From a virus, in IMG/VR virus record IMGVR_UViG_3300046557_000205, positions 6,565 to 70,564 of that record: DNA of 64,000 bases; one strand, written 5' to 3'. How positions within the stretch are numbered: position 1 is the first letter of the stretch; every line of letters starts with the position of its first letter. Position numbers and translations under genes: made by a program. Below the pieces are notes generated by a model. That model was not told the DNA's origin and made no database searches. It saw nothing but the letters and a program-made list of their open reading frames with translations. This document shows positions 37,947-60,995 of the stretch, piece after piece.

Positions 37947-38161
37947 ATAGTAACCCGATCTACAGTGGAGAAGAGACCCTTATGCTTGAGGGCTTCGTGA
38001 AAACCCCAGGCAAACGATTCAGGCTCTGCTACATCTGTTTGAACATCGAACTCCTCCCAGAACTCTCCATCGAGAAGTCCTGAGACATATACTACATTAT
38101 TCTCTATATCATACTCAATGAAATACTCTGAGTACTTATTCTCACCACGGCAAATCGTCAT
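37943..38161 (-). CDS. hypothetical acidic protein
   Basis: Coupled ORF. Confidence 0.55.
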   Translation of the reverse strand: MTICRGENKYSEYFIEYDIENNVVYVSGLLDGEFWEEFDVQTDVAEPESFAWGFHEALKHKGLFSTVDRVTI

Positions 38162-38717
38162 TAAGTTCTTCCTTAAGGCTCTTTGTTTCGGTTTTAATTT
38201 CTTCTTTTACAGGAGTATCATCCTTATCTTGAATACGGCCATCACCATCCTGAACAACTTCAACATGTTCAAGAATGTTCAGACCTTCGAGACGATGACC
38301 TGCCCCTTTGGCTGTATTGTAGTAAGAGAAATTGACAAGGACTAGAGAACCATTACCGATTAGTTCAGGTTCACCTTCACGAACGATCTTAACCTTGTCA
38401 CCCTTGTTGTACTGACGGACCTTATTACCTTCAGCATCAACATAACGAACACTGACCTTACCAGTGATTTCTGGAGGACTAAAGACAACCAGATTATCAC
38501 CAATCAACTTCTGAGTAGGACGACGGAAGACGATGTACTTACCGTCAATATCCTCCTTCTTCACAAGCTGGAGTTGAGCAGTTTCGTACTTACCCCACTC
38601 CTTTTCATCTGCTGGATAGAAGTTAACCTTCCAGTTAGAAGCCCCTGCATATACATCGGGGTCGTAGACCTTAGCCCACTTTACATTTCCTTTTAGTGTC
38701 AAATATTTTGTAGCTAT
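38142..38717 (-). CDS. single-stranded DNA-binding protein (proposed AUA start)
   Basis: WAKV..PD, IGNGS, RLEG, acidic tail NDDLPW; ATA-GCT-ACA-AAA with AAGGA 8 nt upstream. Confidence 0.8.
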   Translation of the reverse strand: MATKYLTLKGNVKWAKVYDPDVYAGASNWKVNFYPADEKEWGKYETAQLQLVKKEDIDGKYIVFRRPTQKLIGDNLVVFSPPEITGKVSVRYVDAEGNKVRQYNKGDKVKIVREGEPELIGNGSLVLVNFSYYNTAKGAGHRLEGLNILEHVEVVQDGDGRIQDKDDTPVKEEIKTETKSLKEELNDDLPW

Positions 38718-43320: not shown

Positions 43321-43590
43321 TTATTCTCCTTCTTCTATTTCATCGAAGACTTCATAATCCCAAAGTTGATCTGAAACGCTCTCATCACATTCAACACAAA
43401 TAAAGTGTAGGGGATCTTTAGGATCATTAACGAATGGCATGTTAGGTTTGTAATCACCAATGTTTGTGGCTATACTTTCCATTGACACACAGTCACAGAT
43501 GCTACATCGAAAGTAGCCACCTCTGTTAACTGACTTCACAAGCTCATCTAATTTCTTCAGTTCATCACTCATCAAATTACTTTCAATCAA
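43321..43590 (-). CDS. small CxxC...CxxC zinc-binding protein
   Basis: CSIC and CVEC pairs. Confidence 0.65.
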   Translation of the reverse strand: MIESNLMSDELKKLDELVKSVNRGGYFRCSICDCVSMESIATNIGDYKPNMPFVNDPKDPLHFICVECDESVSDQLWDYEVFDEIEEGE

Positions 43591-43594
43591 ATCT

Positions 43595-43633
43595 CTAGAG
43601 TATTATTATACCATTTGTAAAAATGTCTGTCAA
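43595..43633 (-). promoter_or_regulatory. consensus sigma70 promoter
   Basis: TTGACA-17-TATAAT, extended -10 TG, then AATACTCTAG. Confidence 0.9.
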
Positions 43634-43634
43634 G

Positions 43635-43922
43635 TCAAATATCGTCTTCTTGATCCCCTTGTTGAGTAGGATCATAAGGTATTTCAAAAATAATATGATC
43701 TACTATGTATATTGGATGGGTATAACGTGGATTATCATTATCTTCTTCATCCCATATAACCCAAATGACATCATCTGTCTCTTCTCTAACCTCTTCAATA
43801 ACTAAATTACCCCAAACAGATTCAGCAAAATTTTCTGTGGTTACGGTACCCCATTGCACATATGCATGATCCTCTTCCTCCCAATGATTGGTTGATATCC
43901 TATCACCCTCACTAAATGTCAT
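43635..43922 (-). CDS. tagged KOW/SH3-like protein 1
   Basis: MTFSEGDRI...YDPTQQGDQEDDI. Confidence 0.85.
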   Translation of the reverse strand: MTFSEGDRISTNHWEEEDHAYVQWGTVTTENFAESVWGNLVIEEVREETDDVIWVIWDEEDNDNPRYTHPIYIVDHIIFEIPYDPTQQGDQEDDI

Positions 43923-44160
43923 CTTCACGATCCCCCATTTGAGTTGGATCATATTGGAGTTCAACATACTTCAAGTTCCAAGGGCTAGCCCCGAGAGCTC
44001 TTTGACGTTTATTAAACCTGACAATACAAACTTCACCTGGTACATCAATTTGTTCAATAATACCTTGCCAACCGATCCAACTTCTAGCACACGCACCACG
44101 ATGACCATTTATATACTCTACATGATCACCAACTTTGAAGGTAATTTCAGATATCATCAT
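43912..44160 (-). CDS. tagged KOW/SH3-like protein 2
   Basis: FKVGDHV...YDPTQMGDREDDI. Confidence 0.85.
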   Translation of the reverse strand: MMISEITFKVGDHVEYINGHRGACARSWIGWQGIIEQIDVPGEVCIVRFNKRQRALGASPWNLKYVELQYDPTQMGDREDDI

Positions 44161-44413
44161 CTCGATCCCCCATTTGCTTAGGGTCATATGGTCTTTCACC
44201 AGGTTGTAGATGCCTAGTGTATACAGGATACCATCCTTCTATGGAATATCCTTTTGCTATTTCTACCATTTTCCCAGAAGTAAATATGATATTAGAGACT
44301 TCATTGTCATTCCATTGATGATGATAAGAATGAAATATACCTTGTGAGTCTTGGAAATCACTATTAGGGTGACCTGAATATACTAAAAGATCACCCTTCT
44401 TAAATGTCATCAT
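44147..44413 (-). CDS. tagged KOW/SH3-like protein 3
   Basis: FKKGDLL...YDPKQMGDRDDDI. Confidence 0.85.
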   Translation of the reverse strand: MMTFKKGDLLVYSGHPNSDFQDSQGIFHSYHHQWNDNEVSNIIFTSGKMVEIAKGYSIEGWYPVYTRHLQPGERPYDPKQMGDRDDDI

Positions 44414-44666
44414 CTCTGTCTCCCATCTGTGTTGGATCGTATTTCTTCTCTGACCATACAAGTTTAAGACTACTGGAATATATCGCATAGCCTGCGACTT
44501 TCTTGTCTTTTATTCCATCAGTTATACGACCAGCTGTAAAATCAACTATAGATACACCTCTGAGTGAATAACTTTCATGATACTTTTTGAAAATACCAGT
44601 TGATTCATGATAAGGATGACCTATTTGATCATACATTACTTCATCACCTGGATTAAATATCGTCAT
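44400..44666 (-). CDS. tagged KOW/SH3-like protein 4
   Basis: FNPGDEV...YDPTQMGDRDDDI. Confidence 0.85.
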   Translation of the reverse strand: MTIFNPGDEVMYDQIGHPYHESTGIFKKYHESYSLRGVSIVDFTAGRITDGIKDKKVAGYAIYSSSLKLVWSEKKYDPTQMGDRDDDI

Positions 44667-45006
44667 CACGGTCTCCCATTTGGGTAGGATCATACTTCAT
44701 TTCAGCAAGTTTCAGGGTTCTGGAATTACTAGAAACTCTACTATTGTTTTTTCCAAGGGTACGGACGTAATTACTACCAAGTGATTTCTGTGCAAATTCA
44801 TAAATCAAATATGTAGAGGTTGGAAAATGAATATCCTTAGATCCAACCCACCATTTAACATCACTCTTGGACTTATCTTCATCCCATTTAATGATGTATT
44901 CGGAGTTATTCGGACAGCAAGAAATGATTGTACCAAACCACTCCCCATTCATACCCATAGATTTATTGCTGTATTTAACAAAATCCCCCAGTTTAAACTT
45001 AGCCAT
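44653..45006 (-). CDS. tagged KOW/SH3-like protein 5
   Basis: FKLGDFV...YDPTQMGDRDDDI. Confidence 0.85.
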   Translation of the reverse strand: MAKFKLGDFVKYSNKSMGMNGEWFGTIISCCPNNSEYIIKWDEDKSKSDVKWWVGSKDIHFPTSTYLIYEFAQKSLGSNYVRTLGKNNSRVSSNSRTLKLAEMKYDPTQMGDRDDDI

Positions 45007-45051: not shown

Positions 45052-45678
45052 TCAGCTAGTAAAATAATATGTTCTGTCATGTTGATAAATGGTAGCACAT
45101 GAGATTAAATGACCCTGTGCAAACATAGCATACTCTGAGAAAAATTCAAAGTCTACTAGATACATGAAAGCTTTGATTGCTCTCGTGTTGTCTTGCTTTT
45201 TGTCAGTGAGTTTTATCCATTCGAGTTCACGATTGTTACCCTCTGAATTACCCATGTACTTATCAATAGCACATAGAGTACGAAGATCCACCCCATACAC
45301 ATCACCTTCGATACGACCACAATACTGCATATTGAATACATCACTGTAGTTATCACGAAGGATTGTATCTGTCGTTGGAAACTTGAATGCCATTGGTTCT
45401 GGTGACTCAGAGTTTACATCGTAGTGATCATAGTTAGTACGTTTGAGTAGATACTCATCCTTACTATAAGTAATCCCCTCACCATAGTACTTACAATGAG
45501 CAAGATACGTTAGATTCAGTGGTCTATTACGACGAAGATTACCTGTAACCATAACAAGAAATTCATTATGGATAAGATTATAATCCTTGAGGTTGTTCCA
45601 GTCTGGTGTGTTCTCTGAGGCCTTTTCGATCCGAGCCCAAGGATCGTAATCAAGCGGCTTCCGCTGTCTGACTGACAT
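45052..45678 (-). CDS. divergent gamma-glutamylcyclotransferase (AIG2)-like protein
   Basis: VMVTGNLRR (cf. VYGTL), IEGDVYGV, IDKYMG (cf. LDxxEG), AFMY. Confidence 0.55.
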   Translation of the reverse strand: MSVRQRKPLDYDPWARIEKASENTPDWNNLKDYNLIHNEFLVMVTGNLRRNRPLNLTYLAHCKYYGEGITYSKDEYLLKRTNYDHYDVNSESPEPMAFKFPTTDTILRDNYSDVFNMQYCGRIEGDVYGVDLRTLCAIDKYMGNSEGNNRELEWIKLTDKKQDNTRAIKAFMYLVDFEFFSEYAMFAQGHLISCATIYQHDRTYYFTS

Positions 45679-46726
45679 CAGTAGTTCCCTTCTTCAGTTC
45701 AATAATCTTCTGTTCACCACGCTTCTTTGCTGCTTGAAGGAGACGGACGAGTTTAGTCTGCTTCCTTACCTGATCAGCCATATGACCCATCAGTGCTGCA
45801 ATAGAATATGGACCTTCATTATCAATCAGATCGACCCACTCATCATACGTGATAAGCGATAGCTTAGCGAGAAGCTCCGGATCATCAAGATCCCAACGAT
45901 CAATGATGTCAGTAACGGCTTTAACGATGACTGACGAACGAGCATTACTGAAGTCCCAAACCTGAACGTCTTGACTGGTTCCTGCAATAGTCCTGGAATG
46001 ATCTGAGGGCCGAAAAGGGCCTGCAATTGCTAGTTGCGCCTCCCTTTCTTTGCGTGCCTCCTCCCTTGCTGCTTCCTCGCTTGCCTTTCTAACATCTTCA
46101 AGTCTTTGAAAGTATGGTCCACGCGAAAGTTTATCAAAGTAATCGTTGTTGGAGATCCAAACTTCACCGCTTGTTTCACCACCATCTTTGTGCTTGTACT
46201 CGGACCAACCATAACCAATCTTGAGGAATGGCATATCATTCGAGATGAATAGACCCTTTGACTGAGATACCCACTGTTTTTCAACAATAAGCTTCCAGAA
46301 GTCGGGGTCAATATAATCACCCTTCCACTTGCTCAACCCCGGAGTGAGGATTTTTTCACAGAAATCGAGGGTGTCAGATTTGCCAGTGTTGTGTTCTCCA
46401 AACATACCCAAAGTGCCGTTGTGCATGAACCACACTTGACGCTTGTTACTATGATAGACCGAGAACGGTTGCGTATTGCTCTCGTCTGTTGCTCCCTTGG
46501 TCGACCAACGGACATGAAGAATGCGTTCAATATCTTTGTTGTCTTCGAGAAGATCATAGATTTCTTCTGGATCATTTCCCTCTGCCCTAAACTTCTTGAT
46601 CAATTGTGCATGTCCATTGCCATCCTTAAGGATTAGGCCATACCCATGTGGATTGTTATGCACTGCATTCGTCAAGTGCTCCTTGGTGATCATTGCACCA
46701 GAAGCCAGATGGATTATAACGCACAT
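45650..46726 (-). CDS. class II (Ntn) glutamine amidotransferase-like protein
   Basis: N-terminal Cys, NPHGYG, HVRWSTKG, NTQPF, HNG, SDT. Confidence 0.88.
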   Translation of the reverse strand: MCVIIHLASGAMITKEHLTNAVHNNPHGYGLILKDGNGHAQLIKKFRAEGNDPEEIYDLLEDNKDIERILHVRWSTKGATDESNTQPFSVYHSNKRQVWFMHNGTLGMFGEHNTGKSDTLDFCEKILTPGLSKWKGDYIDPDFWKLIVEKQWVSQSKGLFISNDMPFLKIGYGWSEYKHKDGGETSGEVWISNNDYFDKLSRGPYFQRLEDVRKASEEAAREEARKEREAQLAIAGPFRPSDHSRTIAGTSQDVQVWDFSNARSSVIVKAVTDIIDRWDLDDPELLAKLSLITYDEWVDLIDNEGPYSIAALMGHMADQVRKQTKLVRLLQAAKKRGEQKIIELKKGTTDVSQTAEAA

Positions 46727-46744: not shown

Positions 46745-47008
46745 TTAAATATCATCATCCCGGTCACCCATTTGTTTGGGATCATAGGGTATTTCTTTTG
46801 CATCTCGTTCCCATTTCCAAGCAGTAAAACCACTGTAACCGATTGAAGTGGGATAATCACCACCCCAACCGTGAATGAATGAGATCATCTTAGTCTTTTT
46901 GTTATTCTCTTTTATGAGGTGGGGACGAGGTTGGTGTTTTGCCTCATCAACTATCCATATCTCATCCCCAACTTCAAAGTCTTGGGCTTCAACTCTTTCT
47001 CTTTGCAT
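46745..47008 (-). CDS. tagged KOW/SH3-like protein 6
   Basis: FEVGDEI...YDPKQMGDRDDDI. Confidence 0.85.
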   Translation of the reverse strand: MQRERVEAQDFEVGDEIWIVDEAKHQPRPHLIKENNKKTKMISFIHGWGGDYPTSIGYSGFTAWKWERDAKEIPYDPKQMGDRDDDI

Positions 47009-47787
47009 TAGAATCCTGCCATTGCTGTCCGATAGTTGGTTACAGTTGCACCAGTGAGACCAGGAGCTGTGTTCACTTCAAGGGCATATGCACGATTGGA
47101 TGCCTGATTGAAGATCACATCAGAAGCACCGAAATCCAACCCAAGAGCTTGAACAGAACGGATACCAGCATCAAGTACACACGGTGGGACCACATGACCA
47201 TCATTGCGGGTATAGATGAACCCATTGGCCAGATTACGAATCTTCCAGTTGACACCTTCAGTTCCCTGATGCTCCGGACGAAGGCCCTTACGTTGTGTAT
47301 CAATTACTGCTCCACGACAAACATGAATACGATACTCATGCTTTTTGCTGATATACTTCACATACAAAGGAGCGGTCTGTTCCCAAGTATCCGGATGTTC
47401 TGGATCCATGATGACAATACCACGTCCTGAATGGGCTCTCAGCTGTGTCCGGGCAAATACCATAGTACCGGCCTCCAACCATGCCAAAGCCTCTGTACGG
47501 TTCGTTGTGAACTCAGGAGAGGGTACTCCTGCCTCACGGAACTTCTGGAATGTCAAAGTCTTGTTCACTGCGATATCAACGTTCTCTGGTTTGTTGATTA
47601 CAGTGCACTTTGCCAGTTCAGGGTTGGTGAACCGTTCAGTTGTCGCTCCCCAATTGAGAAGAATCTTATCCTTCGAACCCTTGAACTTGGAACCGTTATG
47701 CTTGACCCTCGGAATACCAAGAATCTCAGAAAGTTCCTTTGCGCCTTCAGATGCATTATTGTACGAAAACATTGCCTTGATAGTCAT
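47008..47787 (-). CDS. ATP-grasp ligase (RimK-like)
   Basis: NK, HSGRGI, EYRIHV, GLDFGASD, LEVNTAPG. Confidence 0.9.
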   Translation of the reverse strand: MTIKAMFSYNNASEGAKELSEILGIPRVKHNGSKFKGSKDKILLNWGATTERFTNPELAKCTVINKPENVDIAVNKTLTFQKFREAGVPSPEFTTNRTEALAWLEAGTMVFARTQLRAHSGRGIVIMDPEHPDTWEQTAPLYVKYISKKHEYRIHVCRGAVIDTQRKGLRPEHQGTEGVNWKIRNLANGFIYTRNDGHVVPPCVLDAGIRSVQALGLDFGASDVIFNQASNRAYALEVNTAPGLTGATVTNYRTAMAGF

Positions 47788-47788
47788 T

Positions 47789-48055
47789 TTAGATATCGTC
47801 CTCTCTGTCACCCATCTGGGTGGGATCATATGGAATTTCTGCTAGTCTAATAGTAGTACCATCGTTAGGGTGAGTGTATCGTCTACTAATTGGTCCTACT
47901 ACTTGAAAGTATTTTACATCAATGAGAGTGTTTTTATCCCATTGAATACCTACTGCTTCAGCACCTATATCAAAAACAATACCAGTACTACCAGCATAGG
48001 TTTTGGAACCACAATATTCAACTCGGTCCCCAATATGAAATATCTCTCCTGCCAT
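47789..48055 (-). CDS. tagged KOW/SH3-like protein 7
   Basis: FHIGDRV...YDPTQMGDREDDI. Confidence 0.85.
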   Translation of the reverse strand: MAGEIFHIGDRVEYCGSKTYAGSTGIVFDIGAEAVGIQWDKNTLIDVKYFQVVGPISRRYTHPNDGTTIRLAEIPYDPTQMGDREDDI

Positions 48056-49086
48056 TATAGATCACCCTGAGCATCCACAATCTTGTTGGTCGGATTGACA
48101 CGATGATAAATTTCGTAAACAATCAAACGTTCATGATAAGGGATCTGATCGAAACCAGAGTTAAACTGTTTCTGAGAGATTGCTTCCAATTGTTCCTTGA
48201 TCTTCTCCTTGTATACCGGCTTGACCTTCAAGATACCAAACTTAGACCAATCCTTCGATACACCTGCCAGATTTGCTGCATACCATACATCACGGTCCAT
48301 CTCTCTTTTGATGTCCTTGACGGTAGCCTTCAGCTTCTTAGCATGTTCCTTGAGGATGATATCAACCAGAGCTGGACCATTCTCACTGTACATCTTACAG
48401 ATTGTTGCAGGAGTTAGCTTAGGGTCAGCAGCGAACTGCTTGATCCGATCAATGATGTCGATCCATTCCTGGATGACCTTGATATCAGTCTCACCACGGA
48501 AGGAACGTACTTCCAGTGTCCCAAGAGTGGACAGAGTAGCAGCATTGAGTGCAGAGTACTTTACGTGCTCGGAGTTCAATACTGCCTTGCTGAACGAGTT
48601 TCGATTGATCTGTGATAGAAGGTTAATCCACTTGTTCAAAAGCCCCTCAGCGTCTCGTACGGGCAGACAGAACAGGTTTGACAGACGATCTGGGCCTGAA
48701 TATCGGATCAACATCGTTTCCAACAATACCCATGCTGTCATGAAGTTCGCTACTGTCAGGTAGGTCTCATTCAACATGTTGACATGTACATGAACAGATG
48801 TAGACACTGATGACGTCTTGAACTTCCATTTTTTGTCACAGGCTTGGAATTCAGTCAGTGCTCGTTCCAACTCAGGCCCACCCATAGGACCCTTCAAGAC
48901 ATACTCTACACCCCAATCTCGGAGAGAGTTGTCCTTTTTGGCTTCCCAATACTTGAGAGCAGGGTAATCATACTTCTTGTCGGTCTCAGTTTCGATCTCA
49001 ACACCAAAGTCTCCTGTGTAACGAGTACCAATCCCTCGTCCAGAAGACTTCATGATGTCATATACTTTATTCAAATTCGTAGACAT
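48055..49086 (-). CDS. putative amidoligase (Amidoligase_2, GS-like fold)
   Basis: FGVEIE, GVEYV, SVHVHVN, KYSALN, GTLEVRSF. Confidence 0.88.
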   Translation of the reverse strand: MSTNLNKVYDIMKSSGRGIGTRYTGDFGVEIETETDKKYDYPALKYWEAKKDNSLRDWGVEYVLKGPMGGPELERALTEFQACDKKWKFKTSSVSTSVHVHVNMLNETYLTVANFMTAWVLLETMLIRYSGPDRLSNLFCLPVRDAEGLLNKWINLLSQINRNSFSKAVLNSEHVKYSALNAATLSTLGTLEVRSFRGETDIKVIQEWIDIIDRIKQFAADPKLTPATICKMYSENGPALVDIILKEHAKKLKATVKDIKREMDRDVWYAANLAGVSKDWSKFGILKVKPVYKEKIKEQLEAISQKQFNSGFDQIPYHERLIVYEIYHRVNPTNKIVDAQGDL

Positions 49087-49712
49087 TATTTATTACCTTC
49101 TTGAATATCCCAGTCTTTAATATCAGACAAGAAAAAGATAGCATAGCAAGACGTATCAGTCGTAGGAACGATGACCTTCTTTGTCCCCATCCGGACATAT
49201 CCTACTTCAATTTCCTTGACAAACACCTTGAGCTTATCATATTCCCTCTGAACTGCCACATCTCGCGATAGAGCAACAGAGAAAAACCCTTTCTCAACCA
49301 AGAGTTTCATCGCTTGAGAAAATGATGGGTAATTGTTTGCCACACAATCAACCAAGCACTTACCTTCAAGGATCTTCGGATGGACTCCAGCACCATTACT
49401 ACGGAGAACTGTCTGTGTCAGGCGTTGTACATCGATACCTTGACGGTACTGACGAGCAGGTTCACGCTTCAAATACACTGCCAGCTTGTAATCTGGGTGA
49501 TCAATGTTGAGATACCCCAAAGTCAAGCTACTAATATCGATATTGACATCTTCCGGGTCAACATTTGAGGCAATCAAACCATGACCTTCGAGGGAAAAGA
49601 GGGCCAACTGACCCAAATCCTGTACCTCTACCTTCACTGGTATGCCTTTGTACCGAATAATGGTACCACCAAGACGAGCCTTGATGTCTTCACCCTTGTA
49701 TTTATTACGCAT
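49086..49712 (-). CDS. hypothetical protein of the ligase cluster
   Basis: MRNKYKGEDIKARLGGTII..LGYLN..R.P.RQYRQG; start right after ligase stop. Confidence 0.7.
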   Translation of the reverse strand: MRNKYKGEDIKARLGGTIIRYKGIPVKVEVQDLGQLALFSLEGHGLIASNVDPEDVNIDISSLTLGYLNIDHPDYKLAVYLKREPARQYRQGIDVQRLTQTVLRSNGAGVHPKILEGKCLVDCVANNYPSFSQAMKLLVEKGFFSVALSRDVAVQREYDKLKVFVKEIEVGYVRMGTKKVIVPTTDTSCYAIFFLSDIKDWDIQEGNK

Positions 49713-49713
49713 T

Positions 49714-50430
49714 TTAGAGTCCGATAAGTTCGCGGAACGTATTCCGGGTCTGGTTAAAAATAAGACGACGTGTTTCTTCACGTCCCACCCAAAGATTTGA
49801 AGGGGCACGGAGTTCAACACCGTACTTCTTAGGGCGGAAAGAGCCGCTATGGCCATAATAAATCAACCGTTCTTGTTCTTCCTCAGTGTGTGGGGTATAC
49901 AAAGACAGACCCTTCTTGTGGAATTCCCTTGCAAAATACAAGCAATCCTCAAAATGATCTGCTTCCATAGGATTATCAATCAACTCATCCCGGAAACCGA
50001 TATGAATATGACCGGCAGCCGTACGAAGGGTATCTCCCTCAAGTGCCTCCGTTGGGTTGATGTTAACCTGCCCTTCGATATTGAAGTCAGGGTCACAACC
50101 AAGGACCTTGTTGTCCTCAGGTATCATAGTCCAGATGTCTTTACGGAACCGTGCCACTGGTGTCCACGAGACAGTGTAGTCTTTGTCCACCTTCTTGATC
50201 ATAGTGTCGATTTGTTGAGTAACAGCGACTACATTCCGGTTGAACTCTTCTTCGTTCTCTGCCGGATCAATGTTGAACTCTACTGCTACACCGTCTACCT
50301 GTACTGCACCATGCTCAATCTTGTATGGGTTATGCTTGTCTCCGGGAATAATTCCGGTCGCAGGAATAAACGTACCTGCCTTGTCAACAATAAACCCTTC
50401 CGGGTCTGCACCAATACGTATCGTAGTCAT
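49714..50430 (-). CDS. phiEco32-like COOH-NH2 ligase type 2
   Basis: IGADPE, QVDGVAVEFN, GCDPDFN, RTAAGHIHIG, RPKKYGVELR. Confidence 0.9.
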   Translation of the reverse strand: MTTIRIGADPEGFIVDKAGTFIPATGIIPGDKHNPYKIEHGAVQVDGVAVEFNIDPAENEEEFNRNVVAVTQQIDTMIKKVDKDYTVSWTPVARFRKDIWTMIPEDNKVLGCDPDFNIEGQVNINPTEALEGDTLRTAAGHIHIGFRDELIDNPMEADHFEDCLYFAREFHKKGLSLYTPHTEEEQERLIYYGHSGSFRPKKYGVELRAPSNLWVGREETRRLIFNQTRNTFRELIGL

Positions 50431-50474: not shown

Positions 50475-50756
50475 TTAAATATCGTCTTCTAAATCACCCA
50501 TCTGACTTGGGTCGTATGCACGTTCTTCGTCGATATGTTCAAGATTACTGGGGAAAACCCCCAGAGAATGGTCATAACTAGAACCGAATTTCCAAAACTT
50601 CTCGTCTACTTCAAAATAGACATTCTCTTTAGTACCTTCGAGTGTAACAGTACCGGTAATCCCAATCCTATTCAAGTCGATTGAACTAATGACACCATGT
50701 TCTTTCCAGTAATTACCGGTATACCTTACTCTGTCACCTTTCTTAAATGTCGTCAT
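50475..50756 (-). CDS. tagged KOW/SH3-like protein 8
   Basis: FKKGDRV...YDPSQMGDLEDDI. Confidence 0.85.
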   Translation of the reverse strand: MTTFKKGDRVRYTGNYWKEHGVISSIDLNRIGITGTVTLEGTKENVYFEVDEKFWKFGSSYDHSLGVFPSNLEHIDEERAYDPSQMGDLEDDI

Positions 50757-51024
50757 CACGGTCCCCCATTTGAGTAGGGTCGTAAGGTATTTCTCGGAGA
50801 GAGAGTTTTTCTGGTGGAAAAAACCAACCCTCTTTCTCTTTGAGACCACCATGAAGATTATGCTTCAGAGTTTTAGTGGTTCTCTTATCCTCTCTAGTGA
50901 TTTTGATACCATAACAAGCATAGCTGTGTTTATCACCGGGCTTAGTGATGACCTCACCCTCTCCTGCCCCGGAGCCCATGTAGTCTTGGAAATTTATGAG
51001 ATCTCCATAATTAAATTTACTCAT
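50743..51024 (-). CDS. tagged KOW/SH3-like protein 9
   Basis: FNYGDLI...YDPTQMGDRDDDI. Confidence 0.85.
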   Translation of the reverse strand: MSKFNYGDLINFQDYMGSGAGEGEVITKPGDKHSYACYGIKITREDKRTTKTLKHNLHGGLKEKEGWFFPPEKLSLREIPYDPTQMGDRDDDI

Positions 51025-52280
51025 CCCACTTTGGCCTCTGGTTTGCAGTTGTCACAGTAATATTCCCCATGCTTTTCATCATAGGAGAAACCCTTGAGAA
51101 GACCACGACGGCATCGATCACTTTCAAACAAATTGAACCGCTTCTTCTCGCAACGGCACTTGTTCCAGAATGTCTTGATCGATTGGTGTTTGAACACCGG
51201 TTGTTTAACTATCTTCACTTCTGGTTGCACAACAGGAACTGAACGATTGCCCGTACCAGTAGCCGCAGCTTGCTTGTTGAAGGGAATAACGACACTCTCA
51301 CCCATTGGTGTCTTCCACCGTTCGGGTTCACCATTGACGTCCTGGGACAAAAAATCAGGAGACCATACACCTCCTTTATTCGTCGTTCCCCCAGATTGCG
51401 GAGTAAAATTTAGGCGTTCCTCTCTGTCCAACCTCTCTCTGTTGGTCTCTTCTTGGACTACGACAGGAACCTGCTTCTTCATCTCAGGATGTTCGTTGGT
51501 ATAACCAAAATGTTTCCAGACATATGCTGTCGGATCCTTTTTGATATTGGCCATCGTTACATCTGACGACGATACAGTGATAACCTGATGAGAAGCAAAG
51601 CCCATAACATTTGCATCACCTTCACCATTACGACCAAGGATATACCGGAGCATACCGATATCAGATGCCCAATACATGACACCACGATCCTTCAGGAACG
51701 CAAAGGCGAGGTCTCGTGCACCATTACGAGCAAAGTACATCTTGTGGTCTGCACGGTTGTACATAGTGATTGCATAGGCACTACGAACATCGAGATCATT
51801 CAGGACATCGAGGATGTTACCCTTCTTCTCCTGCATACGATGATTGATATCAAGGAACAACAATTCGCTGTCGGTCTTCTTGTTATCTTCATACTTCTTG
51901 TCTACGAGTGTACCATTGTGTGCACCTACGATATTGTAAGTGTTGAATGGATGAGCATTGGCCTCATTGATATGACCCTTGGTTGCCCAACGAACATGGC
52001 ACATCAATACGTCAGCCATCGTTGACTTGAGAAGATCAGCATAGTCTTTGTCTTTACGACCATGATGTTCATCAATCTCAGTCATCATCGACGACCAGTT
52101 TTCTGGTGACTTGTATATCTGCTCATACTTGAAGGCGTTCTTACCGAATGCCTGTGAACGAACTTGATATATGCCAGCACCATCGATACCCCTGATCTGA
52201 GATACAAATCCCAATTCTCGGAGAATCTTATAGTCCTTGACCTGAATTCCAGGCCCCATCATTCCCAAAAGTCCACACAT
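51021..52280 (-). CDS. class II (Ntn) glutamine amidotransferase with Cys-rich C-terminus
   Basis: MCGLLG, RG.DGAG, HVRWAT, NAHPF, HNGTL, TDSE. Confidence 0.9.
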   Translation of the reverse strand: MCGLLGMMGPGIQVKDYKILRELGFVSQIRGIDGAGIYQVRSQAFGKNAFKYEQIYKSPENWSSMMTEIDEHHGRKDKDYADLLKSTMADVLMCHVRWATKGHINEANAHPFNTYNIVGAHNGTLVDKKYEDNKKTDSELLFLDINHRMQEKKGNILDVLNDLDVRSAYAITMYNRADHKMYFARNGARDLAFAFLKDRGVMYWASDIGMLRYILGRNGEGDANVMGFASHQVITVSSSDVTMANIKKDPTAYVWKHFGYTNEHPEMKKQVPVVVQEETNRERLDREERLNFTPQSGGTTNKGGVWSPDFLSQDVNGEPERWKTPMGESVVIPFNKQAAATGTGNRSVPVVQPEVKIVKQPVFKHQSIKTFWNKCRCEKKRFNLFESDRCRRGLLKGFSYDEKHGEYYCDNCKPEAKVG

Positions 52281-52552
52281 TAAATATCGTCCTCTCGATC
52301 ACCCATCTGAGTGGGATCGTATTGAATTTCTGCTGGTATAAAACGTCTGGCACTATATGGACCCATCCCTTCCACCCAACTCTTTTGATGTTCTGGTGGA
52401 GGAACAAGTGTCACTAGTGGGTTCACATTCCCATCTAGAGTATCACTATTGTTGAAAGCCTTTTGGACGACATATTCAACATCACCCTTAAGACGAGACA
52501 ACTTCCAGTCTATGCACTGTACTCTATCACCCGGCGAAAACTGGTGTGCCAT
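52280..52552 (-). CDS. tagged KOW/SH3-like protein 10
   Basis: FSPGDRV...YDPTQMGDREDDI. Confidence 0.85.
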   Translation of the reverse strand: MAHQFSPGDRVQCIDWKLSRLKGDVEYVVQKAFNNSDTLDGNVNPLVTLVPPPEHQKSWVEGMGPYSARRFIPAEIQYDPTQMGDREDDI

Positions 52553-53366
52553 AGTTCTTCCCGATATGTTCAAGATACTTTCGTATGCCTGTTCGTGATG
52601 ATGATTTACCGCCCTGCACGGATTTGACAAAGCCAGCACACAGATCGTCACTATAGATACGAGTCCCAGTGTCAAAAAGAAGGTTAGTAACATGGACTGT
52701 CATCTCAAAGACAAACTCTTGTGTTGACTTATCCCTAAGATAGGCATTGGAGAGAGGTCGATACTCCACACCATAGGGTTTGGGCCTGAATGACCCCATC
52801 TTACCATACAATGTACGACGTTTCGTGTCGTCGTCCCAGAGAAGGCTACTCGGGTAGAGTGTAACATCTAACTGTTGGACCAGTTCACGACAATTCGAGA
52901 TGTGTCTTTCGTCCGTAATAGAATGACCATCTCCCCACCCAATATGGATATGCCCCGCTCCAGTACGAAATGTCTCATTCGTGAACGGAGGTTCATTTTC
53001 TTTTCCTGTGTAAGCATTGAAGTCGGGAGTACATCCCAGAACTTTAATCTCCTCGGGAAGCGCATCGAAGTACACCTTATCAAAATGAGCTGTAGGGATA
53101 ATGTCAAGGTCATATGCAGGTTTCTTCTCCTGAATAATCTCCGTCATGGAGTTCATGACACTACGAATACTCTTTGTGAACTCATCCTTCGTTTCAGCAG
53201 GATCAATATTGAATTCACAAGCAACACCATCCACCTGAATAGCTCCACGTGGTACATGATGTGGCATATCCTTTGTCCCTGGGATGAGATCATGACCAGA
53301 TACATATCGGCCATATTCATCAATCACAAAGAGTTCGGGATCTGTTCCTATTAGAATTCGGTTCAT
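52527..53366 (-). CDS. second phiEco32-like COOH-NH2 ligase type 2
   Basis: IGTDPE, QVDGVACEFN, GCTPDFN, RTGAGHIHIG, RPKPYGVEYR. Confidence 0.9.
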   Translation of the reverse strand: MNRILIGTDPELFVIDEYGRYVSGHDLIPGTKDMPHHVPRGAIQVDGVACEFNIDPAETKDEFTKSIRSVMNSMTEIIQEKKPAYDLDIIPTAHFDKVYFDALPEEIKVLGCTPDFNAYTGKENEPPFTNETFRTGAGHIHIGWGDGHSITDERHISNCRELVQQLDVTLYPSSLLWDDDTKRRTLYGKMGSFRPKPYGVEYRPLSNAYLRDKSTQEFVFEMTVHVTNLLFDTGTRIYSDDLCAGFVKSVQGGKSSSRTGIRKYLEHIGKNYGTPVFAG

Positions 53367-54349: not shown

Positions 54350-55003
54350 CTACCTAAGCATATCAAAGATGTTAAAGAAATAATCTCGGCATTCACTCTT
54401 GGACTTACCGACTGCACGAACTTCCCATTCAGGATGTGGCTGGAAGCAAAGGGAACGAGTATTGTCATACCACAAAACCTCAGGCTCTACCGCTGGCTTG
54501 GTGATAGGACCATTCTGACCATAGCACTCAGTGATACGATTCTCTGAGTATGCAATGATCTCTGCACTCTCAGCAGGAACCATCATCTGATGATGACTGC
54601 TTGTGACTGTGACCGGTTCAGGTGAGCCGAGAAGAGTATCAAACATCTCATGCTCAATGGTGTGGTTATCCACATGTTGGATCATCTTGCCACCATTCAT
54701 GACATTCAAGAACTGACCGCCACGGCAGATACCCACCTTGATCTGATCAGCCCGTGTCTTCTTCCATGCAGCAATGTCACGATCATCCGTGTGTGCATCG
54801 ACAGAGAACTTGTGCATCTTGGGGCCAAGCTTCTCCTGATACAAAGCAGGACTGATGTCATGACCACCAATGAAGCAAACAATGTCTGCCTGCTCAATAC
54901 GAGCTTCGAGTGGATACCGTGCTTCATACCACATGGCACTGATATCACGAGATGCACCAACGATATATACCGATGGCTTACGTGGGGTTGCATCGTTAGT
55001 CAA
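54350..55003 (-). CDS. class I glutamine amidotransferase / peptidase C26-like
   Basis: GGHDI, GICRGGQ, SSHHQ, QPHPE; TTG start after GGGGA. Confidence 0.9.
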   Translation of the reverse strand: MTNDATPRKPSVYIVGASRDISAMWYEARYPLEARIEQADIVCFIGGHDISPALYQEKLGPKMHKFSVDAHTDDRDIAAWKKTRADQIKVGICRGGQFLNVMNGGKMIQHVDNHTIEHEMFDTLLGSPEPVTVTSSHHQMMVPAESAEIIAYSENRITECYGQNGPITKPAVEPEVLWYDNTRSLCFQPHPEWEVRAVGKSKSECRDYFFNIFDMLR

Positions 55004-55004
55004 C

Positions 55005-55871
55005 TTATCGTCCCCATTTTTCGAGTTTGGTCTTGAGGTGCTCACTGAGTGTGCTAAGCCTTTGCTGATCAAGGGTGTAGACAGTAGCCGTAGGAGCGCC
55101 ATACCGGGCACCTGTTGCTGCTGTTGTTGCGATCCCGAAGGATTGTTTGAATTCACCGGACAGTACCTTTCCTGTTCCAGACCATAGTTCCCTCGTGTAG
55201 GCATCTCTCTCCTTACCACGATGGGTTTCATTACGATAGAACATACCCCAATCGGTACTTCCATCAATTGTCACCTGATGAGAACCAGTCCAACCACCAG
55301 TGAATGTCCCACCAATGGCAATTTGTTCATCAGGTAGTATCGATAGATAGTACATCATGATGTGAGCTAGCTTCTTGTTTACTCCTAGTTCAACAAGACG
55401 GCCCCATACATTGACGTTAGCTACCTTATCCTTTGGTGCTCTACTCTCAATAAGGAAAGCATAAAAGAGTAGTGACATACCATCTTTCATCAAAGCATCG
55501 GGAACCCTAAAGCCAAGCATCTGATCTGAGTTATCAGTGAGAACCTCCCATCCGGGTACTTTGAAGAAATCCTGATAGAAACACTCAGGACCAGTAATGT
55601 AATCCCACCACTCTTTTGCATACTTATGTCCCCCACCATAATTGGACACAAGATCACTGATGAAGGTAGACCGACGAATGCCAGCATGACATGTCTGACC
55701 AGAGTGTCTCACTGGTTCAGGCTTTGATAGTGCAGCACCATATGCACCAGTACCAGTTAGGCATGAATACACACAGATACCAGTCTTACCATGAATGGCG
55801 ACATGTTGTTCACTCGGATCTTTGGGATCATAAACCCTTCTAGACAAGCTCAAGCTTCCAGGCTTTTGCAT
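55005..55871 (-). CDS. hypothetical protein (start uncertain)
   Basis: Long ORF in operon. Confidence 0.7.
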   Translation of the reverse strand: MQKPGSLSLSRRVYDPKDPSEQHVAIHGKTGICVYSCLTGTGAYGAALSKPEPVRHSGQTCHAGIRRSTFISDLVSNYGGGHKYAKEWWDYITGPECFYQDFFKVPGWEVLTDNSDQMLGFRVPDALMKDGMSLLFYAFLIESRAPKDKVANVNVWGRLVELGVNKKLAHIMMYYLSILPDEQIAIGGTFTGGWTGSHQVTIDGSTDWGMFYRNETHRGKERDAYTRELWSGTGKVLSGEFKQSFGIATTAATGARYGAPTATVYTLDQQRLSTLSEHLKTKLEKWGR

Positions 55872-56493
55872 CTTCTTTGAGCCTCCGAGTAGAGATCTTA
55901 ATCCAATTGTCACCGTAGTTGTTCCACTTCTTGATATCGATACCGAACTTCAGCTTGATATGTTTTGCTGCTGCGTCCGGAGGGACGAGGAGAACGTGCT
56001 CAATGCGATTATCAACCCCAGTGTTGTCTTGGACGATGCGGGCCTTCCTAAGTTTCGACAACAGAATGTCCTCAAACGCTTGGCGCTTTGGATCTGGTTT
56101 CTTTGGAGGATCAATCTTGTCTTTGAGTTCTTTGAGTTCTTCATGGAAAGATGTGAGAGCCTTTTCGTACTCGCTCGGCTGCGCAGTGAAGAGGTATATA
56201 TCACCTGTGTCCTTGTGGCGTTGTTCGTTGTGTTTGTTTTTCTCCCCGTGGAACACCTGGACGAAGCCACATTTGGGGAGGAACTCGTCCAGTCCATGAT
56301 ACTCGATCTGTTTCCCGGTGACCGTAACCATAATTCCTGCAAAGTCACGCTTAAAGCCCAACTTTATCATTTCAGCTACAGTGTTCAATCGGGAATTGAC
56401 CTGCAACTTAGGGTCCTTTGACACCAAATTAGCAATATCCCATCCCACAAGGTGGGACATAGTGCATGTAGTAGACACAGCTACATGTTGCAT
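55840..56493 (-). CDS. hypothetical protein
   Basis: MQHVAVS start after purine-rich RBS. Confidence 0.7.
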   Translation of the reverse strand: MQHVAVSTTCTMSHLVGWDIANLVSKDPKLQVNSRLNTVAEMIKLGFKRDFAGIMVTVTGKQIEYHGLDEFLPKCGFVQVFHGEKNKHNEQRHKDTGDIYLFTAQPSEYEKALTSFHEELKELKDKIDPPKKPDPKRQAFEDILLSKLRKARIVQDNTGVDNRIEHVLLVPPDAAAKHIKLKFGIDIKKWNNYGDNWIKISTRRLKEDAKAWKLELV

Positions 56494-56528
56494 GTTAAAT
56501 CTTTCTTTCTGTGGTTGTACGATTTCTC

Positions 56529-56567
56529 TTGACAAAGAAAAATACAAATGATATAATAATACTATAG
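56529..56567 (+). promoter_or_regulatory. consensus sigma70 promoter, antisense to local genes
   Basis: TTGACA(56529)-17-TATAAT(56552), extended -10 TG, then AATACTATAG. Confidence 0.85.
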
Positions 56568-57670: not shown

Positions 57671-57776
57671 GTTTCACCCTCCGTGGTTTTTCAGGAATAG
57701 AGAAAGCTCTAGCCAATCTCTCTTTGTATACGTATTTCATATGATCTTCATAGATCTCATCATCAAGCAAAATCAT
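57642..57776 (-). CDS. 44-aa hypothetical protein (not in ORF track)
   Basis: MILLDDEIYEDHMK..., ATGA overlap with the stop of tag 11, GAGG RBS inside tag. Confidence 0.55.
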   Translation of the reverse strand: MILLDDEIYEDHMKYVYKERLARAFSIPEKPRRVKRAVREKDVD

Positions 57777-58042
57777 ATATCATCCTCACGGTCCCCCATT
57801 TGAGTAGGATCATACTTCATTTCAGCAAACACAAAGCGAGATGCTTTCCACTTGGCTGTAGGATTAAAAGCATATTCATATGGAACACGAACCATATGTA
57901 GCTCTTTGTCATCACTCATTACAGCCTCAGTGACTACATACTCTTGGCCAACATTAAGTCTACCAATCGCCAGGCCCGAGCAATCGATACAACGAACCCT
58001 ATCGCCTTTTGAGAATCGTGTGTAGGACGTCTCTGTCGACAT
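57773..58042 (-). CDS. tagged KOW/SH3-like protein 11
   Basis: FSKGDRV...YDPTQMGDREDDI. Confidence 0.85.
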   Translation of the reverse strand: MSTETSYTRFSKGDRVRCIDCSGLAIGRLNVGQEYVVTEAVMSDDKELHMVRVPYEYAFNPTAKWKASRFVFAEMKYDPTQMGDREDDI

Positions 58043-58175
58043 GCCACTGGTCCTTCCTGACTCCTTCCGCCCTACTTCTCTTGATAATTCGTCGAATTGC
58101 GCTGATCGTCGCCGACCGTCCTTCGATATGGCTCTGGGAATGCGCATCCTCATCATCTTTTTTCTCATATATCAT
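57999..58175 (-). CDS. 58-aa hypothetical protein
   Basis: MIYEKKDDEDAH..., start inside tag 12. Confidence 0.5.
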   Translation of the reverse strand: MIYEKKDDEDAHSQSHIEGRSATISAIRRIIKRSRAEGVRKDQWHVDRDVLHTILKRR

Positions 58176-58458
58176 CTTCCCGATCTCCCATCTGTGTTGG
58201 ATCATAAGGGCGTTCAGTCACAATCTTCACCATACCGTTGAATTGTGCATGACGATACTTACTCGTGTGGTTGTTATGTTGAGTACTATTATGCCAATGA
58301 CGACAAAGAAGAGGATAATGCTCGTCAGGATTAACAGCCTCAACTACCCATTTGTGTTCAGGACCAAAGCCATAGTGACCAGCAAGCTTAGGAGGATAAC
58401 AAATCTCATCCCCTACGGAATAATCATCTTCCCCAAGTATAGGTTCGGTCTGTCGCAT
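58165..58458 (-). CDS. tagged KOW/SH3-like protein 12
   Basis: YSVGDEI...YDPTQMGDREDDI. Confidence 0.85.
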   Translation of the reverse strand: MRQTEPILGEDDYSVGDEICYPPKLAGHYGFGPEHKWVVEAVNPDEHYPLLCRHWHNSTQHNNHTSKYRHAQFNGMVKIVTERPYDPTQMGDREDDI

Positions 58459-58825
58459 CGCACACCCTCATCCCTTGGAACCCTCTCCATGTCTTGGGGT
58501 TCCCTACATAGATATCAGCTTCATACGTCTCACCATCATCACCATGAATAGTCTTGGTGTGACGGAAGTACATACTACCACTGTCCTCTTCATTGCCTCT
58601 GTGACCCTCCAGGCCGTCAAGCCTCGTGAGGGTTTTTTTGTCTTCATCGGGGATTTTCCAGATTTCAACTGTGGCACTATCGCCCTCCGATGGAGCAGCG
58701 ACGGGGAAGCCTGAATTATAGAGCTTCAACCCACGAACAATACCCGTAGTGACAAATTCACAGTTAGCAAGGATGTAATTGTTACCATGTCCTCGCTTGA
58801 GTGTCCCATAGACTGAAACGTACAT
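58424..58825 (-). CDS. gamma-glutamylcyclotransferase (AIG2/GGACT-like)
   Basis: VYGTLKRG..N, VEIW, LDGLEG, YFR. Confidence 0.92.
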   Translation of the reverse strand: MYVSVYGTLKRGHGNNYILANCEFVTTGIVRGLKLYNSGFPVAAPSEGDSATVEIWKIPDEDKKTLTRLDGLEGHRGNEEDSGSMYFRHTKTIHGDDGETYEADIYVGNPKTWRGFQGMRVCDATDRTYTWGR

Positions 58826-60388: not shown

Positions 60389-60618
60389 CAGAAATACTCC
60401 GGAGGGTTGTCAGCGAGAAGTTTGTCCTTGGTTCGATAACCATTTGCATACCTCTCAGCTACTTCAATAGCTGTTTGTTTCCACGCATAGTTACTGTAAT
60501 TAAACCAAGGGTCATTGATTTTGTCCCGATAATGTAAAGTCCAAGATACAATCCTACCACCAATGACATTAGGGGTCAGTTTCACATGAGCTGTGAACTC
60601 ATCAGGAGTATCCATCAC
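60388..60618 (-). CDS. hypothetical protein ending DNPPEYF
   Basis: Coupled ORF. Confidence 0.7.
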   Translation of the reverse strand: MMDTPDEFTAHVKLTPNVIGGRIVSWTLHYRDKINDPWFNYSNYAWKQTAIEVAERYANGYRTKDKLLADNPPEYF

Positions 60619-60995
60619 TTCAACTCCACACTTGGGATGAGGACAGAAGGCTTGATGATAACCTTGTAGTGATAGACAGAGACGTCTATAGGGTCCAACT
60701 GTTCAATGATATAGGATGTATTATCACCCATACCAATGAAGTCCTTCTTGAACTGTCCATGCTCATCCTTACAGGTAAGCGAAGGCAGACGAATAGGATC
60801 ATTGTTCCCCAAAGAGCAAAGACCCTCGACAGTCAACAACACATTGTCTGTAATGTCATTGATAACAGTGATCTTGCGCATGATCTTGAAGTTATCAGCC
60901 GCCGTTGACAGATTTGTGGATGCAACATCAGCATCATTACATGCTGAGAGAATGGCAAGCGATGCAAGTGCAGTGGTAATAATGAATTTCTTCAT
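60615..60995 (-). CDS. phage lipoprotein
   Basis: Lipobox LSAC; ADVASTNLSTAADNF..RKI.VIN.ITD pattern of a widespread phage family. Confidence 0.8.
   Translation of the reverse strand: MKKFIITTALASLAILSACNDADVASTNLSTAADNFKIMRKITVINDITDNVLLTVEGLCSLGNNDPIRLPSLTCKDEHGQFKKDFIGMGDNTSYIIEQLDPIDVSVYHYKVIIKPSVLIPSVELK

Follow-up and report, generated by a model that had tools for sequence, protein, structure and literature searches.

An acidic C-terminal tail shared by a phage gene family and the apparent reuse of its DNA as the start of the next gene

Twelve tail-bearing genes in one phage genome

The DNA analysed here is a 64-kb stretch of a soil phage (IMG/VR record IMGVR_UViG_3300046557_000205, positions 6,565 to 70,564; hereafter the window). 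The full record is 70,564 bp long, is complete and has direct terminal repeats, and the window covers the greater part of it. A repeat scan of the window recovered one repeat family consisting of 12 copies of a 42-bp element, here called the tag, and the whole genome holds no copies beyond these. Six-frame translation places all 12 tags in frame at the C-terminal end of an open reading frame (ORF), the tag being the last 13 codons plus the stop codon that lies directly 3'. The encoded peptide, which we call the tail, has the consensus Y-D-P-[TKS]-Q-[MQ]-G-D-[RQL]-[DE]-D-D-I-stop in the window and, more generally, Y-D-P-x-Q-x-G-D-x-[DE]-[DE]-D-I-COOH. A search with the back-translated tail returned 12 matches, all on the minus strand, where 0.01 were expected (none of 100 shuffles reached 12).

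Five tagged genes lie head to tail on the minus strand at 43635-45006, with tag spacings of 277, 235, 253 and 253 bp, much as an earlier reading made from the letters alone (the sequence-only reading) had described them, at about 235-280 bp. What that reading observed in the sequence is confirmed, while its interpretation is partly supported. The array opens with T1 (44653..45006; 117 aa, MAKFKLGD...YDPTQMGDRDDDI), which has its own AAGGTG upstream. The ATG of T2 (44400..44666; 88 aa, MTIFNPGD...) lies within the GAT-GAC codons of the T1 tail, giving a 14-nt overlap, and likewise T3 (44147..44413; 88 aa, MMTFKKGD...) begins within the T2 tail, T4 (43912..44160; 82 aa, MMISEITFKVGD...) within the T3 tail, and T5 (43635..43922; 95 aa, MTFSEGD...YDPTQQGDQEDDI), the last of the array, within the T4 tail.

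The other seven tagged genes, also on the minus strand, are scattered upstream of the array, and all 12 fall within 43.6-58.5 kb, the span of a ligase module described below. T6 (46745..47008; 87 aa) sits between a gene for an ATP-grasp ligase and the first of two genes for class-II glutamine amidotransferase-like (GATase-II) proteins, a slot filled by a tagged gene in five of six mapped relatives, and T7 (47789..48055; 88 aa) sits between an amidoligase gene and the same ATP-grasp gene. T8 (50743..51024; 93 aa) and T9 (50475..50756; 93 aa, MTTFKKGD...) form a pair in which the ATG of T9 lies within the T8 tail. T10 (52280..52693) has a longest ORF of 137 aa but probably starts near 52552 with MAHQFSPGD, and its stop codon shares nucleotides with the ATG of the second GATase-II gene. 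T11 (58165..58458) encodes 97 aa, and the start of T12 (57773..58168) is uncertain, lying either at an ATGA overlap at 58168 or at MSTETSY... at 58042.

Directly 3' of the T5 stop, at 43605..43633 on the minus strand, lies a sigma-70-type consensus promoter (TTGACA-17-TATAAT with TG; 12 of 12 matches) that precedes a Zn-ribbon-like gene and a primase/helicase gene. Inside the array, the promoter scan gave matches at chance level only. A similar TTGACT...TATAAT follows the last tag of the relative L013. The 20-22 nt around the -10 region (43595-43616) match two other sites in the same genome, and the element may be a repeated phage promoter.

The way in which the tag copies differ from one another points to the peptide as the object of selection. 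Tag DNA identity averages 78% (range 64-88%) among the 12 window tags, and 472 of the 573 nucleotide differences between them (82%) are at third codon positions. Codon differences comprise 396 synonymous against 96 non-synonymous changes; Arg, for example, is encoded by CGT, CGA, CGG and AGA, and Gly by GGG, GGA and GGT. Moreover, the tail is retained where no gene follows, and its upstream half, Y-D-P-x-Q, which has no role in a ribosome-binding site or start, is its most invariant part. Because third-position and synonymous differences dominate and the tail is kept without a following gene, the repeat appears to be primarily a peptide under strong purifying selection, and the earlier proposal of a tag that is primarily a DNA device is not borne out.

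Double use of the tail DNA at gene junctions

At five junctions (44666, 44413, 44160, 43922 and 50756), the tail's GAT-GAY codons contain the ATG of the next gene, which precedes the stop by 8 or 11 nt, and a Shine-Dalgarno-like GGGGA or GGAGA lies 5-8 nt before this ATG in the upstream coding region. At four of the five, the tail's ATT plus the stop reads as TTT and so supplies the Phe of the FxxGD motif in the protein that follows. Since GAT-GAC-ATT-TAA reads ATG-ACA-TTT-AA in the other frame (M-T-F-K/N), the usual N-terminus of the family, M-[TI]-F-[KN], is the tail's own DNA. Both the internal ATGs, at the four array junctions and at 50756, and the shared Phe codon had been proposed by the sequence-only reading, and both hold.

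A downstream start within or against the upstream stop is also found at 52280, where a TAATG overlap opens the second GATase-II gene (MCGLLG...), at the ATGA of 58168, and at 47787, where the ATP-grasp gene starts 2 nt beyond the stop of the tag at 47789. Among the starts that had been listed as lying in or overlapping tags, those at 44160 and 52280 stand, whereas that at 57776 opens an ORF of only 44 aa. The start at 58175 opens a 58-aa ORF and is ambiguous because an in-frame ATGA start of the next tagged gene competes with it at 58168. Three of the 12 window tags (43635, 46745 and 50475) have no start in or against them.

To place these junctions in a larger set, we combined the window tags with those of seven loci, 64 in all. 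In 29 of these, the Asp codons include an ATG with an ORF of at least 55 aa behind it; in 15, a start lies at or just after the stop; and 20 have neither. Hence, the claim that any gene placed behind a tag is translationally coupled does not hold for three of the window's 12 tags or for 20 of the 64 in the pool. Where a start does lie inside the tail, codon choice differs: GGG or GGA, which yields GGRGA, is used by 19 of the 22 internal-start tags with a Gly codon but by 11 of 31 others (Fisher p = 2.6e-4, over pooled tags that are in part orthologues). Among the others, the count is 2 of 12 where the start lies at or beyond the stop and 9 of 19 where there is none; in the window alone, internal-start tags and the rest stand at 5/5 versus 3/7 (p = 0.08). 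GAG-GAY, which yields GAGGA, is frequent in tags whose start lies at or beyond the stop. The GGR enrichment bears out the proposal that tail codons supply a Shine-Dalgarno-like GGRGA (or GAGGA) together with the next ATG, and the double use of the tail DNA appears to be real, with synonymous codon choice apparently following the second use. The same type of junction occurs in the RHph phages, in three uncultured relatives, and in phage phiM6 despite its different tail, where EECI-stop reads ...VF.VGD in the other frame.

By sequence, the junctions resemble translational coupling in phage operons, in that the upstream gene contains both the start of the downstream gene and the Shine-Dalgarno sequence that goes with it. 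Unlike the usual coupled overlaps, the tag overlap of 11 or 14 nt recurs as a conserved unit and fixes the C-terminus of one family member together with the N-terminus of the next, M-[TI]-F-[KN]. The junctions thus offer a natural example in which the same nucleotides encode the end of one protein and provide the ribosome-binding site and start of the next, with tuning visible at synonymous sites. For annotation, they indicate that the true starts are probably the internal ATGs, not those of the longest ORFs chosen by gene callers.

Spread of the family and turnover of its members

Outside the tail and an N-terminal FxxGD motif, nothing is common to the 12 window proteins (mean column identity 31%), and none matches a Pfam or PHROG family. 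A word-indexed protein search gave 42 proteins, and the 34 that were retrieved all have the same tail on bodies about 30% identical. In a profile search of 1.84 billion representatives, 510 hits had E <= 1e-3; among the top 150, all 76 new hits of at most 130 aa end in the tail (72 in the strict pattern and four as one-residue variants), and the longer hits are multi-repeat SH3/Tudor (SH3_15/Tudor) proteins that match the N-terminal half only. Metagenomic tail carriers number in the hundreds, measure about 80-100 aa and have very divergent bodies. No longer fused proteins with the tail were found among 7999 candidates, which is weak evidence.

An AlphaFold2 model of T7 is a five-stranded SH3-like barrel with a predicted local distance difference test (pLDDT) score of 75. 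Its best Foldseek matches, eL21, the Spt5 KOW domain and the Pif1 SH3 domain, are weak (E ~1e-2; template modelling scores 0.45-0.53), and a sequence profile search of the PDB likewise gave only weak matches of the KOW, eL21 and PsaE types. The model and these matches are weak but consistent with a body that is a small SH3-fold barrel (KOW/Tudor-like), suggesting that the repeating unit is such a body joined to a constant acidic tail.

The nearest cultured relatives are the Rhizobium phages RHph_I3_11, N3_13 and N3_19 and the Sinorhizobium phage phiM6. We measured the spread of the tail by a motif-free clustering of the C-terminal 12-mers of all ORFs per locus, which gave clusters of 12 in the window, 14 in phiM6, 15 in RHph_I3_11, and 12, 8 and 9 in the uncultured relatives L003, L005 and L008. 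The phiM6 tail is of a different type, ..[DE]Y[KR][IV]DQEP[LM]E[DE]EE.L. The same clustering found no repeated C-terminal tail in PA11, RIO-1, phiEco32 or PaP3 (0/4 loci). This distribution argues that the tail family is specific to the phiM6/RHph clade. A profile of the bodies alone matches three phiM6 proteins and RIO-1 gp15 (L010 9888-10307, plus strand; E 8.8e-6), a tailless barrel homologue encoded directly after an ATP-grasp gene.

Taken together with the 9-15 family genes found in each of the phiM6, RHph_I3_11, G001 and G002 loci, the sequences describe what appears to be a lineage-specific multigene family of ~80-100-aa proteins, present in 8-15 copies per genome in phiM6/RHph-like podophages of ~66-70 kb. 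A pattern scan of metagenomes returned more than 596 stretches, of which two loci passed a tblastn check against the first query sequence. A 67,886-bp scaffold in a Rhodovulum metagenome-assembled genome (MAG; L017-L022, L026 and L027) carries many tags and has the length of this phage clade. It is probably a phage genome wrongly assigned to a bacterium, and short contigs found in two further MAGs have the same look.

PADLOC assigned no family to 11 module or tagged proteins. Literature searches found no description of the tail, although Iyer et al. 2009 and accounts of RIO-1 might mention such tails, and the phiM6 genome announcement (PMC6256558) makes no mention of a tail-bearing family. The family is thus a large one, with no Pfam or PHROG family and no account found in those searches. 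What is new here is an undescribed, widespread tail-bearing family; its overlapping, putatively coupled genes and repeat-mediated cassette turnover are of known kinds.

Evidence that members come and go at the tails is found among close relatives. The contigs L004 and L005 are 95-99% identical and differ by exactly one 253-bp cassette. The single tag of L004 aligns to both flanking tags of L005 and switches from upstream-like to downstream-like in its TATGAYCCYAC part, placing the breakpoint inside the 42-bp unit, as the sequence-only reading had expected for relatives differing in cassette content. One pair of adjoining tags in L003 is identical over 33 nt, a run that ends at the stop and compares with a mean of 9.1 nt, and identical runs of 26-33 nt also join distant tags in L002, L003, L005 and L008. 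Behind several tags (L004 4249-4300; L005 3502-3530 and 6796-6847) lies an element of about 30 nt, TCATTGGGATTTAGCGGAGCTAAAAGA, that contains a 6-bp stem (TTTAGC/GCTAAA), and after the element comes a duplicate of the tag end, GATGACGATATTTGA; in L007 the element is absent at the same place.

On a larger scale, gene-order maps of the relatives share a conserved backbone (GGACT, p235, C26, p326, GATase 2, COOH.NH2 ligase, p256, amidoligase, ATP-grasp, GATase 1, GGCT-like, Zn-ribbon and primase), and the number of tagged genes per slot varies from 0 to 5 across seven loci. The slot before the Zn-ribbon gene holds 5, 2, 4, 4, 3 or 0 tagged genes, and that between ATP-grasp and GATase 1 holds 1, 1, 2, 1, 3 or 0. 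One cassette type occupies different slots in L005 and RHph, and none of the window's 12 bodies has a partner of at least 35% identity in the other loci. In L013 (10250-15283), the backbone itself is re-ordered, with ATP-grasp before p256 and amidoligase and with COOH.NH2 ligase after them, and tagged genes lie between the enzyme genes. L013 is a 129,572-bp metagenome contig, about twice the phage length, and may be a concatemer or a mis-assembly. Two rhizosphere-metagenome runs, one of them possibly its source, contain the window's DNA, as assembled contigs only, with no RNA run listed, and the apparent joints in those contigs are tag-to-tag similarity within one contig.

The complete genome has no match to Phage_integrase (PF00589) or Resolvase (PF00239). 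The tag-breakpoint indel, the slot variation and this lack of integrase and resolvase matches support the tails as crossover points. The tags are, however, poor homology substrates: mean identity is 78% and exact identity runs between neighbouring array tags reach 8-14 nt only, for which reason we regard exchange as an occasional evolutionary event. The proposal that intact cassettes are shuffled without an integrase therefore stands in part, and we attribute the turnover to recombination that takes place now and then within a tandem family, unequally or through short homology, rather than to a dedicated shuffling system. Either way, a conserved coding tail would serve as a crossover point for turnover of a gene family.

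Judging by the passages of Arbiol et al. 2010 (PMC2839356) that concern them, the PeSL cassettes of T4-type phages come nearest among described systems. There, short repeats flank small, non-essential genes of fast turnover, recombination between repeats explains indels between close relatives with no site-specific recombinase, and mini-circles were shown (PMC2839356). By the same passages, the present locus resembles the PeSL cassettes in that repeats flank variable genes (12 tags; slot occupancy of 0-5 across the seven loci) and in that an indel breakpoint falls within the repeat, in one case (L004/L005). It differs in that PeSL elements are intergenic promoter-plus-terminator units, whereas the tag is a coding tail with ribosome-binding site and start and no promoter, and in that the tags are known from assembled contigs alone as against the mini-circles reported there. 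Unlike integron-type cassettes, the array is accompanied by no site-specific recombinase (PF00589, PF00239).

A copy of the tail also stands on a bacterial protein. A scan for the exact tail codons in one genome per species gave 16 stretches, against about 0.002 expected by chance by our own arithmetic, and most of these are phage contigs binned into MAGs. Two Rhizobium chromosomes, however, carry single hits at the 3' end of the gene for histidyl-tRNA synthetase (HisRS), next to hisZ/hisG. Both proteins end in ...AEDRKRA[GS]SGFET[SP]YDPAQAGDTDDDI (L023 2330-4042, plus strand; L016 4001-5836, minus strand), whereas 15 other Rhizobiaceae HisRS end about 18 residues earlier without the extension. 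The extra codons are AT-ending in a GC-rich genome, which suggests that the HisRS tail is of phage origin.

The ligase module and candidate readers of the tail

The genes among which the tagged genes lie encode a set of ligases, amidotransferases and gamma-glutamyl enzymes, all on the minus strand. The ATP-grasp ligase is RimK-like (47008..47787; 259 aa; PHROG 2599, E 5.8e-77), has homologues in 313 phage records, and is flanked by T7 and T6, an arrangement repeated in RHph_I3_11. Upstream of T7 lies an Amidoligase_2 enzyme (48055..49086; 343 aa; Pfam PF12224, E 9.9e-8). The first GATase-II protein (45650..46726) begins with Met-Cys and the second (51021..52280; 419 aa) matches Pfam GATase_6/GATase_4. 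A 208-aa protein (45052..45678), annotated in phiM6 with a gamma-glutamyl cyclotransferase (GGCT) domain, has no Pfam match here; it and the first GATase-II occur in this clade only among the loci compared. The remaining enzymes are a COOH.NH2 ligase-like protein (49714..50430; 238 aa; PHROG 3815, E 5.8e-56), a phiEco32-type COOH.NH2 ligase (52527..53366; 279 aa; Pfam PF14395), a Peptidase C26 of gamma-glutamyl hydrolase type (54350..55267; Pfam PF07722, E 2.2e-12) and an AIG2-like gamma-glutamyl(amine) cyclotransferase (58424..58825; Pfam PF06094, E 3.7e-16). In several genomes the genes for ATP-grasp, both GATases, C26 and COOH.NH2 ligase start in or just after tails. The clade-specific proteins at 49086-49856 and 55840-56547 gave no usable ESM Atlas match.

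A phage module of amidoligase, ATP-grasp, GATase-II and GGCT enzymes was reportedly described by Iyer et al. 2009, and the present locus has the same enzyme set adjoining replication genes. In print, that module has been proposed to modify peptidoglycan or the cell wall (PMC6256558), a proposal repeated in passages of PMC10580990, which do not mention the tail-bearing family.

The explanation that we consider best as a whole, at roughly 70%, is as follows. Selection acts on the conserved acidic C-terminal peptide that the 42-bp tag encodes. Where members stand head to tail, the same nucleotides also give the gene behind its ribosome-binding site (GGRGA where they encode Gly-Asp, GAGGA where they encode Glu-Asp) and its start and first residues, with synonymous sites tuned to that use; as the tail's nucleotides are read as the next start, the N- and C-termini of the family are partly one piece of DNA. 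A crossover between two tails keeps both genes intact, and for this reason the family grows, shrinks and changes slots by occasional tail recombination. The constant tail would be a docking or recognition peptide, while the variable barrels would give each paralogue its specificity. Its likeliest reader would be the phage's own ATP-grasp/amidoligase/gamma-glutamyl module, for which the tail could be an amino-acid ligation substrate, in the manner of RimK-S6, LysX-LysW and TTL-tubulin, or a handle that brings the ligases to barrel-bound targets. We hold the portion comprising the peptide tail, the dual coding and the tail recombination with good confidence; the link to the ligases is tentative, its chances lying somewhat below even.

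Several observations bring the ligases into consideration. RimK, LysX and TTL-type ATP-grasp ligases act on acidic C-terminal tails. An ATP-grasp gene was present in all five tag-bearing genomes tested (the window, G001, G002, G004 and phiM6), and G003, a 17%-complete fragment, gave no ATP-grasp match. The tail of E. coli S6 ends in AEAGDSEE, which tag variants such as QAGDTEEDI resemble. As with the pairs RimK-S6, LysX-LysW and TTL(TTLL)-tubulin, a small acidic-tailed protein is encoded beside a RimK-like ATP-grasp ligase, and the tag locus additionally carries gamma-glutamyl hydrolase and cyclotransferase genes. Unlike those substrates, the tails have an aliphatic end and belong to 8-15 divergent paralogues, and other phages have the ligase module but no tails. 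Host S6 mimicry was considered and set aside: the tail of Rhizobium S6 is basic and rich in Arg and Pro, which also counts against the ligase reading, and E. coli S6 alone resembles the tag core. A comparison of the tethered C-terminal domain of the phiEco32 ATP-grasp protein with the barrels gave an hhalign probability of 0.1%, and that candidate relative was rejected.

Further findings weigh against the explanation given above. The ligase core occurs in PA11, RIO-1, phiEco32 and PaP3, in which no repeated tails were found (0/4 loci), indicating that the module enzymes do not need tails. The phiM6 ATP-grasp protein is 61% similar to that of the window, compared with 61-62% for the enzymes of the RHph phages, which carry the YDP-type tail, despite the different phiM6 tail; because they are equally similar, no ligase-tail co-divergence is visible. 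Furthermore, the phiM6 tagged genes form one block upstream of the module and are not interleaved with it, and the tails end in Ile (with Leu and Val variants) after D/E-D/E-D, not in the Glu of RimK and LysX substrates. As for the other parts, a clean indel with its breakpoint in a tag was found once only, and the codon-bias test pools related genomes in which some tags are orthologues and not independent, classified by a script that misfiled at least one junction (58165).

The most specific form of the ligase link, in which the tails are a protein-level handle of the amidoligase/ATP-grasp module and 8-15 SH3-fold adaptors or substrates are read through one peptide, we regard as improbable. 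If it were true, the peptide would be extended or ligated by the enzymes or would recruit them to barrel-bound host proteins, the system would be a bacterial-virus counterpart of tail-directed tagging (TTL/tubulin, Pup), and the tail on Rhizobium HisRS would be a host-side decoy or sensor of that machinery. The tail-bearing family as such offers a concrete, testable candidate for the target of the widespread, unexplained phage ATP-grasp/amidoligase module.

Other explanations would place the function of the tag elsewhere. The tag might be chiefly a DNA-level device, a portable ribosome-binding site plus start and a recombination site, with the peptide a by-product. Such a device would account for the dual coding with its codon tuning, the L004/L005 crossover within a tag, the long identical runs between some tags, the variable slot occupancy and the tagged genes between the re-ordered enzyme genes of L013, the enzyme genes that often start in or at tails, and a genome without integrase or resolvase family match. 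It would not account for the dominance of third-position variation and a peptide near-invariant across hundreds of divergent proteins, for a tail kept without an adjacent start at 3 of 12 window and 20 of 64 pooled tags, for Y-D-P-x-Q, which lies outside the ribosome-binding site and start yet is most invariant, or for a tag DNA identity as low as 78% on average with exact runs of 8-14 nt between neighbours, and we consider it unlikely. A graspetide-like role, in which the ATP-grasp enzyme cross-links Thr or Lys to Asp or Glu within the tail, seems very remote to us: the enzyme is adjacent and the tail does hold a Thr (Lys in phiM6 and some RHph tails) and several Asp/Glu residues, but the Thr position is unconserved (residues seen there are T, K, S, N, M, A, P, E and H), PHROG 2599 and the Pfam RimK matches of homologues place the enzyme among RimK-type ligases and not among graspetide cyclases, and the 'leader' would be a folded 70-aa barrel.

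A somewhat less doubtful alternative, though still one we do not favour, is that the tail docks the barrels onto a host hub, such as the adaptor site of a protease or unfoldase, a replisome pocket for partners of single-strand DNA-binding protein (SSB) or another acidic-tail receptor, in which case the family members would be adaptors for host takeover or anti-defence. Such adaptors would be expected to combine a constant tail with bodies that evolve fast, to have many paralogues and to be encoded at an early, replication-side location, as the tagged genes are, and poxvirus ankyrin/F-box-like proteins likewise combine many paralogues and a variable binding domain with a short constant C-terminal docking element; the layout is shared, while fold, motif and kingdom differ, and the likeness is an analogy only. 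A host hub would also fit the tailless ligase core of other phages, the different tail type of phiM6, whose host is of another genus, without co-divergence of the ATP-grasp enzyme, and the finding that an essential enzyme encoded on a host chromosome can bear the tail. The analysis yielded no candidate host partner, however, and the tail lacks the terminal aromatic residue that SSB-type tips need. A near-identical tail in Rhizobium RHph phages and many metagenomic phages makes host-specific tuning not evident, and the tight interleaving with the enzyme module in five of six mapped relatives would go unexplained.

Beyond the tagged genes and the module, several other features of the genome were recorded. 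Between the tag array and the primase/helicase gene, 43321-43590 (minus strand) encodes a Zn-ribbon-like protein of 89 aa that is rich in Cys, has the acidic end ..FDEIEEGE, matches no family and is conserved in phiM6, RHph, L003, L004, L005 and L013. At 38142-38702 (minus strand), a clade-conserved 186-aa protein ends in ...ELNDDLPW, like an SSB-type acidic tip, and may be the phage's single-strand DNA-binding protein. Large structural genes at 2400-28500 (plus strand) contain many imperfect Gly/Ala/Thr-rich direct repeats (families D3-D15). Finally, a 126-aa protein at 60615-60995 (minus strand) matches Pfam Phage_VG64, the Mycobacterium phage VG64 family (E 3e-44).

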